Counted from the stretch's first letter, positions 19,946 through 32,000 are shown. The stretch is DNA of 32,000 nucleotides from an archaeon (GCA_024275415.1 JAJRZD010000077.1:16586-48585); one strand, 5' to 3'. Made by a program: numbers and translations. The notes: generated by a model not told the origin, from the letters alone.

Positions 19946-22336
19946 ATGTTGAAGCTGATATCAGGTTCGGATGTAATATTAGACCATATTCATGAGATCT
20001 TGGATGCTTATCGAACCATACGGAGCTGCAAAGAAGTGATATCTCCGCGTATACTGTTTGAAATTGAAGACGAGCTAAGTACAAGTGCTATTGCTGTTGG
20101 GGATGTTACTGGATCTGGTTCATCTGAGTTATTGACAGGTGGCCGTGATGGAGTCATTAGACTATATAATGCGACAAGTACAGAAACCCAACTTCTTGCT
20201 CAATGTGATGTGACAGGTGCCATCCTATCTATCAAGATAGCCGATGCCAATAACGATGGCACGATGGAGATTGTCCTTGGTCGTAGCGTTGGACCTGGGG
20301 AACAACCTGGTACTTCTGGTACTGTGCAGGTCTATCGCTACACGCCAAGTGGGATATTAGAGCTTCTTGCAGAGTATGCTATAGATCGATTTGTCACTAC
20401 CGTCGTGGTCACTGATGTCACCGGCGATGGAAAGAACGAGATTGTCGCTGGAGGGAGCGACATGACTCTCAGGGTTCTTAGCCTTAGTCCTGACAACACA
20501 CTCACTGAGCTGTCAAAGAAGGTGCTCGATGATATGCCAATCGCGATTGGCACCTCTGATGTGATCGGTGATGAGATTGACGAGATTGTCACGGGGAACC
20601 GTGATGGGTCTCTCCGCATATTCAAATTATCCAATGGCACCCTAGACCAAATTGAAGCACTGGAACTTCCAAGCCCAGTCATCTCGATATCTTCTGGGGA
20701 TCTTCTCGGAGACCGTAAGATGGAGCTTGGAGTTGTGACTCATGATGGATCGATTCGGATTTACATAAATGAAGAAAGCAAGTTGGAATTGTTCTCCGAG
20801 CTCTCCAATGTCAATGCACTATCTATCCGGATGGCGGAGCTGAATGCTGACCACATGGACGAGGTTGTAGTGGCTACATCTGATTCCAAGGTTATCTTCT
20901 ACAACCTGTACATGGCAGAACTCCAACAAATTGGTGAAGTCGATATTGGATCTAAGATACTAGCGTTGTCAGTAGGCGATGCCACAGGAGATGACATGAA
21001 AGAAATCTTGACAGGCATCTCTGACGCCCCCCTTAAGGTCATCAAGGGTCTCTACCAACTGATACCTAAATTCGAGATAATTACAGAATCTGCATCTAGT
21101 ACAGAAATGAATGGTAGACTGACGGTGATCAATGTAAGTGATTCGCCTGTGCAGGGCGTGACTGGGAAGATCTATTGGTTTCCCAAAGCAAGCCTTGAAG
21201 TTGATCCCCAGCAGATCCACTTCGATATAGGTCCCAAGGAAACTCGGATGATTGATATCCGTTTAATCCCACGCGAGCAAGGCAGCGCAGTGATTCGACC
21301 AATCGTGCTGATGTGGACAGGTGACGATGGGAAAGTGAACCAAGTCACCACTCCTGAAACCGCTATCCTTGTAGATGAAGAGATGGTTCGAGCTGCTCCT
21401 GCCGCAACCCCTCCCGTTACCATACGCGCCGCTGAAACTATTATTGATCGAGATACGCCTCTTGAGTCAATTGAGGTGGAAGGGACTGGATTTGGTTCAG
21501 TCCTGTCCTCTGTTGGTGCCAAGAAAGTTCAGATAAAGACATCCAGCGGCTCATCGGAGTCCCTCAAAGAAGCTGAACGCCTTCTTGACCAGCTGTTTGG
21601 AGAAACATCCACTGCAACTGTGGATGAAGAGGTATCAGGTACTACCGGTGCAGCAACCGAAGCCGTCCCAGTAGTCGAAGAGAAACCCCCTGTAGAAGGG
21701 GTCGAGAGTTCGTTGGTAGCAGAGATTCGTTCCCGTCTTCCCAAACCCATGCGCCCTGGTGCAGATTCGGACTCGTATAGCTACCTGTTTAAGACCATGA
21801 TAATTGGTGAGGGTGCTGTTGGAAAAACGGCACTCGTGAACCGATATACCACAGGAGCCTTCGAAACTGACTACAAGACCACCATCGGTTCTCAGTTCGC
21901 AGTGAAGCTCACACACATATCACCTCCCGAAGAGCAGTATTCTGTTGGCATCAAAGTACAGGCGTGGGATGTTGCAGGACAGGCCCGATTCAAAGCAGTT
22001 CGGAAGATGTACTACAGTGGTGCGGCTGGGGTAATCCTTGTGTTCGACGTAACACGGCGTAGATCCTTCCAAGAGTTGACCAAATGGGTTCAAGAAGCCG
22101 ACGAATCCATTGGGATGCGCGTGCCTATGATCTGTGTAGGTAATAAGATTGACCTGCCCGACCGCGCGGTGCCTTCTGCAGAAGCCAAAGAATGGGCTGA
22201 ATCCCAAGGATTCCTGTATATGGAAAGCAGCGCAAAGACTGGAGAGGGTGTGGCTGATATGTTCACGGTGCTCTCCGAGATGATGTGGCGAGAAGCAAAG
22301 GAATCTGCTGAGGCAAAGAAAAAGGGGAAAAAATAA
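19946..22336 (+). CDS. Multidomain protein: 7-repeat FG-GAP-type beta-propeller, Ig-like beta-sandwich, low-complexity linker, C-terminal Rab-like GTPase
   Basis: Seven D-x-x-G-D-x-x-x-E-(I/L) repeats at aa ~50-368; beta-rich aa ~372-477; Ala/Glu/Ser/Thr/Pro linker aa ~478-610; GTPase aa ~611-785 (GEGAVGKT, TTIG, WDVAGQ, GNKID, SAK). Confidence 0.9.
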   Translation: MLKLISGSDVILDHIHEILDAYRTIRSCKEVISPRILFEIEDELSTSAIAVGDVTGSGSSELLTGGRDGVIRLYNATSTETQLLAQCDVTGAILSIKIADANNDGTMEIVLGRSVGPGEQPGTSGTVQVYRYTPSGILELLAEYAIDRFVTTVVVTDVTGDGKNEIVAGGSDMTLRVLSLSPDNTLTELSKKVLDDMPIAIGTSDVIGDEIDEIVTGNRDGSLRIFKLSNGTLDQIEALELPSPVISISSGDLLGDRKMELGVVTHDGSIRIYINEESKLELFSELSNVNALSIRMAELNADHMDEVVVATSDSKVIFYNLYMAELQQIGEVDIGSKILALSVGDATGDDMKEILTGISDAPLKVIKGLYQLIPKFEIITESASSTEMNGRLTVINVSDSPVQGVTGKIYWFPKASLEVDPQQIHFDIGPKETRMIDIRLIPREQGSAVIRPIVLMWTGDDGKVNQVTTPETAILVDEEMVRAAPAATPPVTIRAAETIIDRDTPLESIEVEGTGFGSVLSSVGAKKVQIKTSSGSSESLKEAERLLDQLFGETSTATVDEEVSGTTGAATEAVPVVEEKPPVEGVESSLVAEIRSRLPKPMRPGADSDSYSYLFKTMIIGEGAVGKTALVNRYTTGAFETDYKTTIGSQFAVKLTHISPPEEQYSVGIKVQAWDVAGQARFKAVRKMYYSGAAGVILVFDVTRRRSFQELTKWVQEADESIGMRVPMICVGNKIDLPDRAVPSAEAKEWAESQGFLYMESSAKTGEGVADMFTVLSEMMWREAKESAEAKKKGKK

Positions 22337-24953: not shown

Positions 24954-26003
24954 ATGGCATCTGTGAATAAGATTGACTCACTGCTTTCGATATCCCATGA
25001 CAAGGATGTGGACGGTCTGTGCTCTGCAGCTATTGTCTGGCGTTATGCCGAGAAGAAGGGACTGAAGCACGATGTCATGCTTACTGACTATGGTGGGTTC
25101 AATCAGGTCTTTTCCAAGGTTTCCCTGTACCGTAATACGCTCATTATCATCACAGATCTTGGCATGGACGAAGCCGAGCTGGACACGGTCAAGAACGGGC
25201 TCTCCCGTGCTGTCGCACAAGGCTGTAGAGTAGTCTGGCTGGATCACCATCAGTGGTCGCCTCGGTCTATAAAGGCTATCACTTCCTTAGAGAACAAACC
25301 CATTCTTCGAATAAACCATGACCATTGTGCCGCTGAGATAGCATTCAAAGTCCTGATGCCAAAGGATCCAATCTCTGAGGAACTGGCAACGATTGCGCAT
25401 GATACGGATTTTAACCTCCGTCAAATTGAGGCAGCGAATATATTGACGGATGCTCTTTCAGTGGTTCGGTTCGGAGCGTTGGATAAAAAGGAGGATCTGC
25501 TAGATGCAATCTTTCCCCTGCTGGAAGCGCTAGCAAAGAACGGCATCAATGGCGTGTGGAACCCAGAATCACAGACTCTCCATGACCCACTTCTCTCGAA
25601 AAAGGTCGCTCATTACCGTAAAGAGCGCCACAAGAAGATGAGGAAGGCAATCGCTGGGCATAATGATATGGAAATACACGGGAAACTAGTCCGTATCGTG
25701 GAGATTCCTCATGGCGTTACCACTACAGACCTTGGGACTTATATGGCTGAACCGAAGAATCTCAACAATGATGGTGGGAATCTCAAGGTTGCCGACTTGC
25801 TGATTACTGTTGGCCCCAGCGGAAAGCTTGGATTCAGGCGAGGGTCAGAAGAAGTTCTTTGCAATGCGGCAGCGAAGCTGTTCAATGGGGGTGGACATCC
25901 CTTTGCAGCAGGGGGCGAATGGGGGATGTATGAGGATTTTCAGGTTGTATGCACGGACATTTTCAATACTCTTTCAGAATCGCATGACTGGGTCGTTTCA
26001 TGA
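24954..26003 (+). CDS. DHH/DHHA1 family phosphoesterase
   Basis: SHDKDVDGLCSA, IITDLG, WLDHH, and DHHA1 GGGHPFAAG. Confidence 0.9.
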   Translation: MASVNKIDSLLSISHDKDVDGLCSAAIVWRYAEKKGLKHDVMLTDYGGFNQVFSKVSLYRNTLIIITDLGMDEAELDTVKNGLSRAVAQGCRVVWLDHHQWSPRSIKAITSLENKPILRINHDHCAAEIAFKVLMPKDPISEELATIAHDTDFNLRQIEAANILTDALSVVRFGALDKKEDLLDAIFPLLEALAKNGINGVWNPESQTLHDPLLSKKVAHYRKERHKKMRKAIAGHNDMEIHGKLVRIVEIPHGVTTTDLGTYMAEPKNLNNDGGNLKVADLLITVGPSGKLGFRRGSEEVLCNAAAKLFNGGGHPFAAGGEWGMYEDFQVVCTDIFNTLSESHDWVVS

Positions 26004-26951
26004 ATACCTCGTTATGGAATCATAGATGTCCTTATTGAGCGACTTTCCCCCGTTGAACACCCTATCGAATCTCTCGATCATGTTATCAAAGAGTATTGGG
26101 TTGTCCTCGCGATGTAACAAAGCCACAGATTCTGGGTCACACATGTTTGAGATGAATATGAATGCCTTCTCTGTGTTTAGAGCCATTATCAAGAAGGGCA
26201 TCGGTTCCCTTGGGACTCTAATATCTAACACATTGCTTGCCAGAGAATTCAGAATCAAACTTCTCTCCTCATTGAGGATCTTCCAAAATGATGCCATTCC
26301 ACCTCTAATGCCAGCTTTATCTTGATAATCCAAGATTCGAATTCGCACTCCCTTTTCTGTTGTCTTTAGAAGCATCTGGTCAAGAGGTATGCTATCCGTA
26401 TCCCTGCTAGCAATGGATGTCGACCTGTAGCTCATCCTGATAATATCGCCTGACTTTGACTGTTCACAGAGCTCAAAGGATATCGCACTTCTAATGTTAT
26501 CAACACCTTCGATTATCCCTGACCTCAACGGTGGTCTACCTCTCGATAGCCTGTCGACAAGCCAATATGCGAAGTCATAGGTATTCATTTTTTCAAGTTC
26601 GTCGATTTCTTGCTTGACCTCTTTCCTTCTTTGCTCCAAGTCCTTCAATCTCTGAAGAACCAACCTGTCAAGTCCTTTCCTGACATCGATTAGCGATGAA
26701 GCATACCTGATAGGCTTGTTTATCCTATCTACGGTGATCATCTGCTCATTTTCTAGATTCGCGAGGCATTTGTATATCCATTGTTTGCTAAACGGCTCTT
26801 CACGCTCTGCATTTACTGACTCTTCGATTTCTGCAAATGTAGGACTTCTGCCATTGTCTTGAAGAATCTCCAGTATCACTTTCAGAACTTGATAGTTCCT
26901 CGAATTGGTATTGACGCCGAGAATATCGAAGTACATGTCTTCAGAGCTCAT
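25998..26951 (-). CDS. TrmB-like protein paralogue 4 (winged helix, coiled coil, PLD-like domain)
   Basis: PTFAEIEESV...FSKQWIYKCLANLENEQMITVDR; heptads LKDLEQRRKEVKQEIDEL; GDIIRMS, KGVRIRIL, HREDNPILFDNMIERFDRVF. ATG 26951 overlaps the upstream stop by 11 nt (track start 27002). Confidence 0.7.
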   Translation of the reverse strand: MSSEDMYFDILGVNTNSRNYQVLKVILEILQDNGRSPTFAEIEESVNAEREEPFSKQWIYKCLANLENEQMITVDRINKPIRYASSLIDVRKGLDRLVLQRLKDLEQRRKEVKQEIDELEKMNTYDFAYWLVDRLSRGRPPLRSGIIEGVDNIRSAISFELCEQSKSGDIIRMSYRSTSIASRDTDSIPLDQMLLKTTEKGVRIRILDYQDKAGIRGGMASFWKILNEERSLILNSLASNVLDIRVPREPMPFLIMALNTEKAFIFISNMCDPESVALLHREDNPILFDNMIERFDRVFNGGKSLNKDIYDSITRYS

Positions 26952-27885
26952 CGAATCCCTCCTTGTAGTATTCAAGGTAGTCAATCCCTTGTTCGAAATC
27001 ACGGTCGAAACTGTTCACAGCTTCATCAATCAATGCGGCATTCGTTTCACGAGGGATCCATACTAGGATGAACGGTTCCTCGGAAACCAGAAGGATCAGA
27101 CTGTCCCTATTCAATGCGATTCCTTGATATGTGCGTACACCTTGTCTACTTTGGTTCGCAATCTTGTATTCGATGTCAGTACCTTCCTCTACGAGTTCTT
27201 GAAGTGCCTTGTATCGCCAAGCGACAATATCTGGTAACACTTGCCTCGGATGGTACTCCATGACACGTATCTTTGCTCCCTGCATTGCTGCGACCATCCT
27301 CTTGTACTGGCTTTCAAGCTGCTCCTTCACCTCAACAGGAATCCAATCCGTGGTTACTCTAAGCACATCACCTTTTGTGGTATTATAGCTTATCTCATTC
27401 TCGATGAATAGCAAGGCGTTTGATACACCCTTCACAGTCTTGGTTCTGACCTTTCTCTCAGGACCAACTAGACGCTCAACAAATCTTCGTGCCAGCCATG
27501 GCATCTCTACGCTCTTAAGCATCTCTTGTTCTACATCAATCCTGTCAATTTCTTGTTGGAGTTTGAGAAGCTTCTCGGTTTTGTATCTCTCAATGGCTTT
27601 TATTGTAGACTCGAAATTCACCGTGTACAGGTAAGGCTTGTTCGTTCGGTTGACCGTCATTAGCCCTGACTGTTCAAGTGCTTTTAGATGTCTATATATG
27701 AGCGGGCGTGTTGTCTTTTTTCCTCCAGCCATCTCACTTAGCTTTTTATCGATGGCATCGATTGTGACTCCTCTACCTAGACTCTCTTGAGATGACAAAA
27801 TGGCATTGAGAACCCTTTCTATCCCTGATGTTGGTATCAGGCCCAGCGACTTGATTAACTCGAGTTCGCCATCCGTTTCTTTCAC
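26941..27885 (-). CDS. TrmB-like protein paralogue 3 (winged helix, coiled coil, PLD-like domain)
   Basis: VTIDAIDKKL...TTRPLIYRHLKALEQSGLMTVNR; LLKLQQEIDRIDVEQEML; GDVLRVT, QGAKIRVM, PRETNAALIDEAVNSFDRDF. Confidence 0.7.
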   Translation of the reverse strand: MKETDGELELIKSLGLIPTSGIERVLNAILSSQESLGRGVTIDAIDKKLSEMAGGKKTTRPLIYRHLKALEQSGLMTVNRTNKPYLYTVNFESTIKAIERYKTEKLLKLQQEIDRIDVEQEMLKSVEMPWLARRFVERLVGPERKVRTKTVKGVSNALLFIENEISYNTTKGDVLRVTTDWIPVEVKEQLESQYKRMVAAMQGAKIRVMEYHPRQVLPDIVAWRYKALQELVEEGTDIEYKIANQSRQGVRTYQGIALNRDSLILLVSEEPFILVWIPRETNAALIDEAVNSFDRDFEQGIDYLEYYKEGFDEL

Positions 27886-27902
27886 ATCTTATCAACTCAT
27901 CA

Positions 27903-28955
27903 CTATCTTTGAATCAACTTCGAGCGAGTGACATCAGTCCTTGTATCTTCTCCAATTACATCCTTCAGGAACCCAAGCGCAGGAGAAATCTCCTGTTTCT
28001 GCTTCTTACTAGGGTTCACTATCGAGATGGCATCTTTCCATTTCTCATCAAAAACATTGACTGCTTCATCTATGAGGATCGAGTTGAAATCCCTCGAAAA
28101 GTATGTTGCAGTGACAGGGTCTTCTGTAATGATCAACACCATTGCACGATCATCCACTATAACATGGTTGAAAGGATTAGCTCCATTGAACACTCTGACA
28201 TCTATTCTCTTTCCACATCTGTTCATCTCCCCGAGCATTGTGAGAAGTGCGGGCACATCTCGAAGGTACTCGTGGGGGACTTGAGTTGATGCCAATGCAT
28301 TAAATGAAACCAAGTACCTGATATCAGCTCCTCGTTCTGCTGCATCGATGTATTTTTGGAACCTTTTAACCATGTTTTGATCTGCAAAGGGTCCAAACCA
28401 GCTCATTGTTGTTCTTATGATATTACCTGCTCCTGATGGGCGAAATATATTGTTCTTCAATGTGGCCTGCAGATATGAGAATCCATTGATGAACTGTGAA
28501 GTAGGCGTTTCTGTTCTTCCTGTGAGGTGTTGGATGATCTGCTGACTGATGACAGTGACATCTAATCCGTTTAGATACTCCTCTTCAATATCCAGCTGCT
28601 GCCGTTCAGTCCGAATCTGTTCTTTCTGCTGTTCAATACGCTTCTGAAGTCCCTGAGTGATTGTACCGAGATTTGCAATATATCGCTTTCTTGGCGTGTC
28701 TGGGTTCTCATAGCGTATGAATTCCGACTCCACAAGGTGTTTGAGGATTCTATGAATCCACCCTTTGCTTGCTCGTTGTATTCCTAACTCTTTGAGTTTC
28801 TCTGTGATATCTTGAAAGCTTGTGGCCCTTGAATGATCTCTGTTTGTGGACAGAATGATACCTAGAATCACTAGTGCTTTGTTATCCTTGCGACCGCTCC
28901 TGCAAAAACCAGCCACTTGGAGAATATCCGTGATATCTTGATCCATCTTGGACAA
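27903..28955 (-). CDS. TrmB-like protein paralogue 2 (winged helix, coiled coil, PLD-like domain)
   Basis: TSFQDITEKL...ASKGWIHRILKHLVESEFI; IEQQKEQIRTERQQLD; GNIIRTT, RGADIRYLV, HVIIVDDR, SRDFNSILIDEAVNVFDEKW. Alternative start ATG 28946. Confidence 0.72.
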   Translation of the reverse strand: MSKMDQDITDILQVAGFCRSGRKDNKALVILGIILSTNRDHSRATSFQDITEKLKELGIQRASKGWIHRILKHLVESEFIRYENPDTPRKRYIANLGTITQGLQKRIEQQKEQIRTERQQLDIEEEYLNGLDVTVISQQIIQHLTGRTETPTSQFINGFSYLQATLKNNIFRPSGAGNIIRTTMSWFGPFADQNMVKRFQKYIDAAERGADIRYLVSFNALASTQVPHEYLRDVPALLTMLGEMNRCGKRIDVRVFNGANPFNHVIVDDRAMVLIITEDPVTATYFSRDFNSILIDEAVNVFDEKWKDAISIVNPSKKQKQEISPALGFLKDVIGEDTRTDVTRSKLIQR

Positions 28956-29741
28956 CCCTCATCTCCTCATATCTAGTAATCCTCTTCGAATGTTGTCTCA
29001 GATAGCTTGATATACATTGAAAAACACGTTCCTTTTTAATCCTTTTACGAATAACAATCCTACTTGGGCACTTCCGTTCTTTGAAGGAATGCCCGCCCTT
29101 TGGCATGCTGCGGAGAAGGCCGGTTCGAGGTGGGGGGACCATCTATTGCTGTACGTGTTCGTAGATGCTTGTCCTGACATGTATGGACTTGATAGCCTCC
29201 AATATGGTACGTATGAGATGAATGCCCCTTCAAGGCATATATTTCAAGCACCGTTCATTTTTAGTTTGATAAACTTGGACAGAGTGTTGTACTCCCACGA
29301 ACGGCACTAGGTGGATCCTGCGAGGCCGTTTGCGTGTCATGTCGGCATCATACTCTTGTGGGAGTGGTCGAGTCTATAAAGCCCTATAATCTACTTCGAA
29401 TGTCCATCTAAGGGATGTCTGAGTTTGGGTACGTGTAGCGCAGCTGTCTGAAACCCTCACACCCGTCCGTATTCAATTGAAAGTTACTCCTCATTGGATT
29501 GTCTTGCAATTACAACAATACTTGCATGAGGCTGCGGTTTTTTGACACAGAGGCAGATCTGCATGTACTAATTTACAGAAAGTAACTATATGAATATTGA
29601 ATTAATCAACGTTTATTATTTTACCTGCACATATTCGTCTTGCTCTTGGTCTTCCTTGGATTCACATCAAACACAAGATCAAACTATCTTGTTTGGATTT
29701 CAAGGTAATCCTGGGCATGTTATCCGACCAGAGTACTACTC

Positions 29742-29776
29742 GAAGCAAAGCCTGCTGGGAGTTAGGGCTTTGCTTC
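29742..29776. terminator. 11-bp perfect stem-loop just downstream of paralogue 1
   Basis: GAAGCAAAGCC (29742-29752) and GGCTTTGCTTC (29766-29776), 13-nt loop, 18 nt past the stop at 29795. No clear U-tract, so the role is uncertain. Confidence 0.45.
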
Positions 29777-29794
29777 ACCATCAGGCTTCCTCCA

Positions 29795-30784
29795 CTATGA
29801 CAAATATTCCTTTATCCACTTGTCGTCAATTACCTCTGAAACCAGAAGCGATTTCTCCCATTGCTCGTCAAAGGTCTTGATGATATCGTCAATGAGGTCT
29901 GCGTTGAAGTCCCGTGTGATCCATGCCGCTGTAGGTGGCGATTCTGAGATCCAGAGCGCAACTACCTCGTTGTTCAAGCTTACAAACTGATGGCTCTTTG
30001 TTCCAGCTGGGTTGATTCTGAAGTGAAATCCTGGTCCTGTGTTTTTGAAAGGGACGACGGCACCAATGATTCTACGCACAAGCTCTTTTTGTGCGGTGTC
30101 TTCAAACAATTCGGATATCCTTAATGTTTCTGGAGGTACGGCATATCGAATCTCGACTCCCCTTTCTACAACACGGAACACCCTGACAAGGCGTTCAGTA
30201 TACCCATCCACAAATGCCGCAGCATTAGCAACAGATGTCCTAATGATATCGCCTTTTCTTGCCTTGTCGTATATTGTTTCGTTGGTTATCTTGTGGAACT
30301 CATTGATATCTTTCAAGAACCTGGAACTCGGCAACTGGACATGCCCTGTCAAATCCTGATACAGTTTTTGCGCTAAATTGTGGGTATCAATCGATATAAC
30401 AAGTTCTTTTCTTTGTTCGATTGCCTGCCTCTCATTCTCGATTCTTTGAAGGGCCTGTTCTTTCAGATGGTCTATCCCTGCAACGATAGTATTCACGTTA
30501 CACAAATACTTGGCTCGTCGCCCGTCCATCCCACTCGTGCCAACTAGATTCATATCAACCAGACTGCGCAACAACCTGTGAACCCATGCTTTGCTTGAAG
30601 GCTTGTCCTCCTGCTTCGTGAATGCATCGTAGATGTCTGCAAAAACTAGTTCAGGATGTCCTGACTCTTGGAGCGCCAGTAACACTCGAAGCAGGTCAAG
30701 GGCCTTTGTGGCTTTTGCTGACAAAAGGAATCCAATCATCTCGAGTTCTGTTCGGTAGGATCCATCCATAATGTTAGCCACCAC
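29795..30784 (-). CDS. TrmB-like protein paralogue 1 (winged helix, coiled coil, PLD-like domain)
   Basis: LVFADIYDAF...SSKAWVHRLLRSLVDMNLV; ALQRIENERQAIEQRKEL; GDIIRTS, RGVEIRYAV, TRDFNADLIDDIIKTFDEQW. Alternative start ATG 30772. Confidence 0.72.
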   Translation of the reverse strand: MVANIMDGSYRTELEMIGFLLSAKATKALDLLRVLLALQESGHPELVFADIYDAFTKQEDKPSSKAWVHRLLRSLVDMNLVGTSGMDGRRAKYLCNVNTIVAGIDHLKEQALQRIENERQAIEQRKELVISIDTHNLAQKLYQDLTGHVQLPSSRFLKDINEFHKITNETIYDKARKGDIIRTSVANAAAFVDGYTERLVRVFRVVERGVEIRYAVPPETLRISELFEDTAQKELVRRIIGAVVPFKNTGPGFHFRINPAGTKSHQFVSLNNEVVALWISESPPTAAWITRDFNADLIDDIIKTFDEQWEKSLLVSEVIDDKWIKEYLS

Positions 30785-30991
30785 ATAGGCTTATGAGATG
30801 TTTTCAGCTGCGTGAATAAGAATTCACTCTATTTCATGATTTGTTTTCTTATGAACGCACTCGATTAATGGATGCTCAAGAAGCAGATCATGTAGCATGC
30901 TGACCGTTTCTTTCAGACAAGCCTTTGCATTTCTCATATCAAATAATATTATCTATCCTGCCTAAACATTTAATCCTTTTTGGTTCTCGTT

Positions 30992-32000
30992 TCACAGCCC
31001 ACTGACAGCAATTGACTTCATGTATCCGAAACCTATCTTCATGACCATAGGTAGGAAATTAGACATGAGATTCATGTATGTTGATACACCAGCAGTCCCT
31101 TGGATCAACTCGTTCAGTGTCCTTGCGTCTAGCTCTCTAAGCACAATCTCTGCAGCAGCAATTGGATCATTATGCATGGCGAATTTGGAAACTGCCCACA
31201 TCCCTTTGCCTGTGTTTGTGATGTTGTCTGCAAGCTTTGTTCGGCGATAGGTTTCTTCATATCTCTTAACGCTTTTCTTTGAGAAATCGTTCTCGTCAAT
31301 CATCCTTTTTGCATGTCTGGCAAGCAACTGACCAGCATGGAAACATGTAGTTACGCCACCACCGACGATTGATGAGACCTGTCCTGCTGCATTCCCGCAC
31401 AGGGCTACCCCTGCATCGGTGAATCTAGGGATAATGCCTGCACACGGAACGACGCCCCCATTGACCGCAACGATCTTCGCGTTCTCAGTTTCCTTATGTG
31501 TCTTCATGTACTTTCTGAGGACATCTCGCATGGGTGGTAATCGTTCCCAGTTGTACTTGGATGACGGTACACGGCCAATCCCGAGATTGACCTCTGTTTC
31601 AGAGCGTGGATAGAGCCAAAGATAGCCTAACCCGACATCCTTTCCAACGTAGAAATAAGCCGTTTCAGCGTCAACACCCTTACAGTTAGCGAGCTTGAAC
31701 CTGTATCCGTACGATAGGAGCCACTTCGGATGGGTAAATCCTGCCGTGTCTGAAACTCTGCTGAAAGAACCATCAGCACCTACACTAAGAGGGGCGTGGA
31801 CTTCATCCCCCTGGTTGTATCGCAGCCCTACTACTTGTTTTCCTTCCTTGATGACAGAGGAAACCCTAGCATTATATCTGAACTCCGCTCCTTCTGCGAC
31901 TGCGCGGTCACGCATCAGCTCCTGACAAAGATCCTCATCGAGAAGGTACGAGTTGCCCAGAAGTGTCCTATCTACCACAATGTTTGATCCTGTATCTAGG
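30992..32000 (-). CDS. Geranylgeranyl reductase family FAD-dependent oxidoreductase (5' end beyond the window)
   Basis: The frame stays open to the window edge; VGADGSFSRV, YLWLYP....VNLGIG, GGVVP, LCGNAAGQVSSIVGGGV. The N-terminal GxGxxG motif is not in the window. Confidence 0.8.
   Translation of the reverse strand, partial: LDTGSNIVVDRTLLGNSYLLDEDLCQELMRDRAVAEGAEFRYNARVSSVIKEGKQVVGLRYNQGDEVHAPLSVGADGSFSRVSDTAGFTHPKWLLSYGYRFKLANCKGVDAETAYFYVGKDVGLGYLWLYPRSETEVNLGIGRVPSSKYNWERLPPMRDVLRKYMKTHKETENAKIVAVNGGVVPCAGIIPRFTDAGVALCGNAAGQVSSIVGGGVTTCFHAGQLLARHAKRMIDENDFSKKSVKRYEETYRRTKLADNITNTGKGMWAVSKFAMHNDPIAAAEIVLRELDARTLNELIQGTAGVSTYMNLMSNFLPMVMKIGFGYMKSIAVSGL

Follow-up and report, generated by a model that had tools for sequence, protein, structure and literature searches.

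Does a tandem set of related archaeal genes encode several separate regulators, or the subunits of a single one? The question is raised by a 32,000-nt stretch of archaeal DNA (GCA_024275415.1 JAJRZD010000077.1:16586-48585; hereafter the window, with all coordinates counted from its first letter), in which four open reading frames (ORFs), P1 to P4, encode related proteins that resemble TrmB. Few archaeal regulators are commoner than the TrmB-family proteins and, to our knowledge, almost no transcription factor of the Asgard archaea has been characterised. An initial annotation, made from the sequence, described a tandem array of four TrmB/TrmBL2-like paralogues and offered a hetero-oligomer, a chromatin complex or a bank of ligand sensors as possible roles. 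We find that P1 to P4 belong to an unannotated protein family confined to one taxonomic family of Thorarchaeota, and that their identification as TrmB/TrmBL2-like is correct. The proteins fall into three orthogroups, A, B and C, whose products may form one mixed DNA-binding complex. Members of the family are annotated as 'hypothetical protein', without a Pfam or NCBIfam model, and no published description of such an A-B-C paralogue family was found in the literature.

Four paralogues in three orthogroups

All four ORFs lie on the minus strand. P1 (29795-30784) encodes 329 amino acids (aa), with an alternative ATG at 30769. P2 (27903-28955; 350 aa, or 347 aa from the ATG at 28946) opens a packed unit. 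It is followed by P3 (26941-27885; 314 aa), which starts 17 nt past the P2 stop, and by P4, whose longest ORF spans 25998-27002 (334 aa). If P4 starts at the ATG at 26951 (25998-26951; 317 aa), it overlaps P3 by 11 nt, and the tight packing of these three genes is as the initial annotation had described it. That the four are full-length paralogues is borne out by BLASTP, in which all six pairs are significant over nearly their full length at 20-28% identity, with E values from 4.8e-41 (P1/P2) to 2.4e-12 (P1/P4). These are the only four copies in their own genome.

The motif blocks by which the paralogues had first been recognised are all visible in the P1-P4 alignment. From P1 to P4, the first block reads GDIIRTS, GNIIRTT, GDVLRVT and GDIIRMS, and the second GVEIRY, GADIRY, GAKIRV and GVRIRI; the third follows the pattern R(D/E)xNxxL(I/F)DxxxxxFD. 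P1 and P2 have the motif SKAWVHRLL/SKGWIHRIL in common, and P3 and P4 the motif TVNRTNKPYLY/TVDRINKPIRY. P2 is the sole basic protein of the four, with an isoelectric point (pI) of 8.9; the other three range from acidic to neutral, with pI 5.6-6.0.

A maximum-likelihood tree of 63 proteins, taken from 20 loci with called ORFs, resolves three clades with support of 100% (A), 97% (B) and 100% (C). The clades equal operon position: A comprises the first gene together with any extra copy, B the second gene and C the third. P1 and P2 (the latter on a long branch) are assigned to A, P3 to B and P4 to C. Of the two pairs that had been proposed among the four proteins, P1/P2 is retained, both members falling in A. 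The pairing of P3 with P4 is rejected, because P3 has a higher BLAST score with P2 than with P4 and B and C are separate in the tree. A profile search of 1.84 billion representative proteins recovered 179 relatives at E <= 0.001, and all 152 of the 152 representative relatives examined assign clearly to A, B or C, the best score being about twice that of the runner-up. Some 180 representatives sorted into three orthogroups would support building a new family model.

The order A-B-C holds in 20 loci, with intergenic distances mostly between -4 and +20 nt. An extra A copy is present in four genomes (G000, G005, G006 and G013), and the closest relative of P1 is that of G005, at 46% identity. Since P1 and P2 are only 28% identical and sit on different A sub-branches, their duplication is old. 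A spacer of 839 nt (28956-29794) separates P1 from P2, and P1 probably forms its own transcription unit. The ancestral unit would be a three-gene operon, A-B-C, and P1 is a lineage-specific second A copy. The four-gene tandem array of the initial annotation is accordingly real as a set of paralogues, while the unit that is conserved has three genes and leaves P1 set apart. In one further arrangement (G015:C68 5008-6975; L029, P0006), A and B are fused in an open 655-aa frame with a linker of about 30 residues; in G345, which belongs to the genus of G015, the A-B junction is continuous but the frame changes.

Distribution, loss and rate of change

Among 40 relatives, 22 of the 24 genomes of the same taxonomic family hold three to five tandem copies. 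A larger sample comprised 400 genomes of the phylum: besides 315 from other families, it held 85 further members of this taxonomic family, which database names and Atlas clusters place in Thorarchaeota (Asgard). Strong matches are found in 78 of the 85, mostly three apiece. Conservation in relatives, whose absence the initial annotation had named as one way to refute its proposal, is therefore strong, though what is conserved is A-B-C. The operon was found in none of the 315 genomes of other Asgard families. Single weak matches found there (E ~1e-6) are what generic TrmB winged helices would be expected to give.

Five genomes have a single match, and in four of them contig ends cut the locus. 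The fifth (G378:C1 6838-7332; L083) carries a solo 164-aa ORF of C type (E 1.8e-20), which corresponds to the winged-helix and coiled-coil half only and lies outside the usual gene context described below, beside an opposite-strand ORF of 2165 aa. Apart from this C-type fragment, no solo copy on an intact contig was found among the single-match genomes.

In the window, the genes are bordered upstream by a co-oriented gene for a geranylgeranyl-reductase-like (GGR-like) flavin adenine dinucleotide (FAD)-dependent oxidoreductase (30992-31999, minus strand; Pfam GGR_cat, E 9.5e-12), which is cut by the window end, and downstream by a gene for a DHH/DHHA1 phosphoesterase (24954-26003, plus strand; Pfam DHH, E 1.6e-11), which is convergent with P4. 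The same two genes flank the operon in 19 related loci, at 69-83% identity for the GGR-like gene and 54-74% for the DHH gene. In two genomes, each 97% complete, they adjoin one another and A-B-C is wholly missing: the distance between them is 191 nt in G018 (G018:C13 8497-11027; L074) and 215 nt in G372 (G372:C4 6692-9252; L086). Because both genomes keep the flanks yet miss all three genes, the A-B-C unit is dispensable and is lost as a whole. The two cases look like independent losses of the entire unit. In a tree of the DHH protein, G018 is nested within the family; its sister there is G019, a genome with extremely diverged B and C copies. In the genus of G372 the operon is kept in 27 of 28 genomes.

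The proteins themselves are poorly conserved. Across 16 genomes, median pairwise identity is 31% for A, 27% for B and 25% for C, compared with 63% for the DHH protein, 73% for the GGR-like protein and 55% for a neighbouring oxidoreductase. The A-B-C unit thus changes at two to three times the rate of its neighbours.

Predicted fold and relationship to TrmB

No Pfam or NCBIfam model rises above threshold on P1-P4, which give weak winged-helix hints only. With the Pfam TrmB model (PF01978), P3 alone has a match (E 0.09; 13.1 bits against a cut-off of 25.6) and P1, P2 and P4 have none, whereas canonical TrmB proteins of the same genome match PF01978/PF11495 with E values down to 1e-23. Comparison of a 116-sequence profile of the family with five of these canonical TrmBs, using hhalign, gave a probability of 97.5% (E 5e-12) over an alignment of 246 columns. 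Because this profile-profile match runs from the winged helix through the C-terminal domain, the A/B/C proteins form a remote branch of the TrmB world, with a predicted domain content like that of TrmBL2 and without the sugar-binding subdomain of TrmB.

An AlphaFold2 model of P2, built with a 116-sequence alignment, has a mean predicted local distance difference test score (pLDDT) of 91.2 and a predicted template-modelling score (pTM) of 0.78. In it, a winged helix extends to about residue 93; a long helix (96-130) and then a short one lead into an alpha/beta domain (about 150-310). The model of P4, which belongs to the most diverged group, repeats this layout (pLDDT 90.5). A 35-residue heptad helix is seen in the models, and its hydrophobic a/d positions are kept in A, B and C alike. 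The succession of winged helix, coiled-coil helix and alpha/beta domain that had been read from the sequence is thus reproduced in confident models.

Structural searches agree with the profile comparison. Foldseek ranks TrmBL2 first (E 1.1e-10), followed by TrmB and then by single-lobe phospholipase D (PLD)-fold proteins; these are the folds against which the initial annotation had proposed comparison, and its assignment of a TrmB/TrmBL2-like layout is upheld by the fold searches and by hhalign. VIA comparison with TrmBL2 gave Z 14.8 for P2 (244 residues aligned) and Z 12.7 for P4 (243 aligned), and about 200 residues were aligned with TrmB 3qph. Full-length matches of the P2 and P4 models in the PDB are confined to TrmBL2 and TrmB, and matches to the winged helices of Hop2 and Mnd1 (E 0.005 and 0.059) were for this reason set aside as generic.

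The closest known system, TrmBL2 (TK0471/PF0496; PDB 5box, 5bpd, 5bpi and 5bqt), has the same three-part layout and likewise lacks the sugar-binding subdomain. Sequence identity to it is only 12-16%, and the proteins described here exceed it by 50-85 residues: their coiled coil is longer and is followed by an additional helix, and their C-terminal domain contains a helical insert. Further, TrmBL2 is encoded by a single gene, whereas here there are three co-inherited paralogues that are fast-evolving, mostly not basic and dispensable in some relatives. With TrmB sensu stricto from Pyrococcus and Thermococcus (PDB 3qph and 2f5t), and with the TrmBs of the same genome, the family has in common a remote homology that runs from end to end. 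Within the TrmB effector domain (2f5t), it is the first, N-terminal subdomain on which the C-terminal domain superposes (Z 14.6, root-mean-square deviation (rmsd) 2.6 over 130 residues), and the 2f5t matches are confined to chain residues 110-243. Soon after the PLD-like domain the models end with one or two helices, leaving no counterpart of the sugar-binding C-terminal subdomain that TrmB possesses.

The C-terminal domain also superposes on Nuc (1byr), NucT (6ehi), Zucchini and the DUF1669 domain of FAM83 (Z 12-15, rmsd about 3, about 140 residues), with which it has the single-lobe PLD fold in common. Enzymes of the PLD superfamily carry the catalytic motif HxKxxxxD. As first noted, this motif is absent from all four of P1-P4; it occurs anywhere in the chain in just 2 of the 63 related proteins, and the strand aligned with it reads TYxxVSLN in the family consensus. 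For these reasons the PLD-like domain is predicted to be non-catalytic, as in TrmB and FAM83. Residues conserved in the C-terminal domain include Asp178, Arg181, Arg254, Asn268, Arg288 and Asn291 (P2 numbering), which might surround a pocket or form an interface.

Position 68 (P2 numbering) is occupied by Tyr in every B and C protein and by His in 79% of the A proteins. The hhalign alignment places it opposite a Tyr that is conserved in the canonical TrmB recognition helix. Tyr50 and Asp51 of TrmB are listed as a DNA-contacting residue pair (PMC4158304), and we take position 68 to be the equivalent of Tyr50, on the presumption that the numbering matches. The neighbouring position, acidic in TrmB (Asp51), is Arg or Lys in the A/B/C proteins. 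In each of the three groups, the winged-helix domain has a median net charge of about 0.

A candidate mixed DNA-binding complex

A fast-evolving operon that is kept or lost as a unit suggests that its products act as one mixed complex. We consider a DNA-binding regulator complex containing A, B and C to be the best reading of this locus, with a probability of roughly one half. The case for a hetero-oligomer is built on gene order, tight packing, all-or-none presence and the one A-B fusion; 1:1:1 orthology and overlapping stop and start codons point indirectly in the same direction. DNA binding, hetero-oligomer formation and the targets are inferred.

In the proposed mechanism, P2-P3-P4 would constitute an A-B-C unit under its own promoter-like block, and P1 would be an old second A copy lying upstream, split off by a spacer with a mobile-element-like repeat. 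Each protein is predicted to have a winged helix and a coiled-coil helix, together with a PLD-like domain that is catalytically dead. A, B and C would be produced together at a fixed ratio, and contacts made by their coiled coils and PLD-like domains would hold them in a mixed oligomer, which would bind DNA with unlike recognition helices (carrying His in most A, and Tyr in all B and C). Such an oligomer would probably serve as a lineage-specific regulator of transcription, perhaps of its own operon or of its fixed neighbours. More tentatively, a single mixed assembly in which A, B and C are all obligate could read asymmetric DNA sites; it might be a hetero-hexamer or a dimer of unlike dimers. 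This stricter proposal, which also takes in the dead PLD-like build, the status of first heteromeric member of the TrmB world and possible control of the GGR-like and DHH neighbours, is a possibility that we hold with some reserve. Were it true, the assembly would be an invention of one Thorarchaeota family. A co-inherited trio of ancient paralogues would provide the first candidate for a mixed TrmB-type complex, and the Asgard archaea would gain a defined and testable regulator.

Several observations weigh against a mixed complex. P1-P4 stay below threshold with both Pfam TrmB and Regulator_TrmB (PF11495), so that their membership of the TrmB family rests on remote methods. Charge pairing between g and e' heptad positions shows no preference for mixed over like pairs. 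Mirror-tree partial correlations among A, B and C (0.46-0.62) are no higher than those among the unrelated neighbours (0.34-0.57) and are uninformative. The A-B fusion is intact in one genome only, and two genomes of the same genus, that of G015, have separate genes. A search of the spacers between the GGR-like gene and the A gene in 20 loci yielded no operator conserved across genera. Finally, the known proteins of the TrmB family are homo-oligomers (PMC4158304). Prediction of a P2+P3+P4 complex from orthogroup alignments gave a score of 0.53, against 0.73 for a control in which chain 1 was replaced, and counts neither for nor against binding.

The alternative that survives best is that three (here four) independent, homo-oligomeric TrmB-like factors merely share an operon, each recognising a DNA site, and perhaps a ligand, of its own. 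Since the TrmB-family members characterised so far are all homodimers, tetramers or octamers (PMC4158304), a set of three separate homodimeric regulators could not be told from a mixed complex by sequence; charge pairing in the coiled coils does not favour mixed pairs, and His in A against Tyr in B and C at the recognition-helix position could mean different targets. Independent paralogous regulators, however, rarely hold 1:1:1 orthology, gene order and overlapping stop and start codons, as these genes do across 16 genera, and neither the joint loss in G018 and G372 nor the scarcity of solo copies on intact contigs is readily accommodated. The absence of the TrmB sugar-binding C-terminal subdomain also speaks against separate ligand-responsive factors, and for the same reason the 'bank of ligand sensors' put forward in the initial annotation is weakened. 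We regard independent factors as rather unlikely.

A general chromatin role, in which the proteins would form a nucleoid-associated set that coats DNA without sequence specificity as TrmBL2 does, was raised at the outset and is now disfavoured. TrmBL2 is the best full-length structural match and the sugar-binding subdomain is missing in both, but no other TrmB-family protein in Thermococcales is as conserved as TrmBL2, which keeps 82-92% identity (PMC4158304), against medians of 25-31% within one family here. Three of the four proteins are not basic, the winged helices have a median net charge of about 0 in all groups and the whole set is cleanly gone from two near-complete genomes, which together make a chromatin set improbable. 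Equally hard to credit is a pseudo-enzyme scaffold or conflict/defence-like module whose winged helices make protein contacts: very fast evolution, patchy presence within the family and dead PLD-like domains such as FAM83 among the best C-terminal matches would suit it, but PADLOC matched no defence model (the best hit, E 0.0018, was to the generic winged-helix part of Csa3, the other three proteins having no significant hit), the surroundings of the locus are of a fixed housekeeping kind and not a variable island, and in B and C the recognition helix is kept along with the Tyr that aligns with the DNA-contacting one of TrmB.

Promoter-like block, spacer repeat and neighbouring genes

A promoter-like block, TTTTCAATGTATAT..AGCTA (28999-29024, minus strand), precedes the P2 start by about 50-80 nt. 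Two genomes of the same genus, G006 and G004, carry it almost unchanged ahead of their first A gene. The block may be a promoter composed of a TATA box and transcription factor B recognition element (BRE), possibly with an operator. It would fit transcription of P2-P3-P4 from this point, with P1 transcribed apart. A look-up of public sequencing runs listed none for the region.

In the spacers between the GGR-like gene and the A gene, the sole enriched word is CCTGCTTC, present in 9 of 18 non-redundant loci (maximum in shuffles, 7). Its reverse complement, GAAGCAG, occurs in 7 loci. The word sits just past the GGR-like gene (at about 30860-30890 in the window, where the spacer before P1 spans 30785-30991) and may mark a conserved hairpin or terminator after that gene. 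A second pattern, TGTAAAC...AAGTAAGTA, is found in a subset of loci only and is absent from the window.

The spacer between P1 and P2 contains a dispersed repeat of about 210 nt (29250-29456; no strand assigned), which is probably an element resembling a miniature inverted-repeat transposable element (MITE). Other contigs of the same genome carry 15 near-full copies (77-85% identity, one of them about 150 nt long) and 13 partial copies. In an alignment of eight copies the borders are sharp and the flanks unrelated; the repeat starts with ACCGTTCATT and ends with GCAGCTGTTTGCAACCC. Of seven copies inspected, most are intergenic and a few run into the end of a short predicted ORF. Its plus strand has a predicted folding energy of -54.5 kcal/mol, and the repeat has no match in Rfam; across the window, no Rfam family and no tRNA were found. 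The end of a TnpB guide RNA was considered for this repeat and rejected, two copies following a histidine kinase gene and nrdD, not tnpB. The idea that the P1-P2 spacer holds the decayed remains of a fifth paralogue was likewise rejected, as the hidden Markov model of the family has no match there.

Beyond the DHH gene, related loci carry a gene pair for an indolepyruvate/pyruvate oxidoreductase and often a gene for a Ras-like GTPase. At 19946-22336 (plus strand), the window encodes a 796-aa protein in which FG-GAP/BBS-like beta-propeller repeats are joined to a C-terminal small GTPase of Ras/Roc type (Pfam Ras, E 6e-46), and the part of this protein that is covered in 13 related loci is 62-86% identical.

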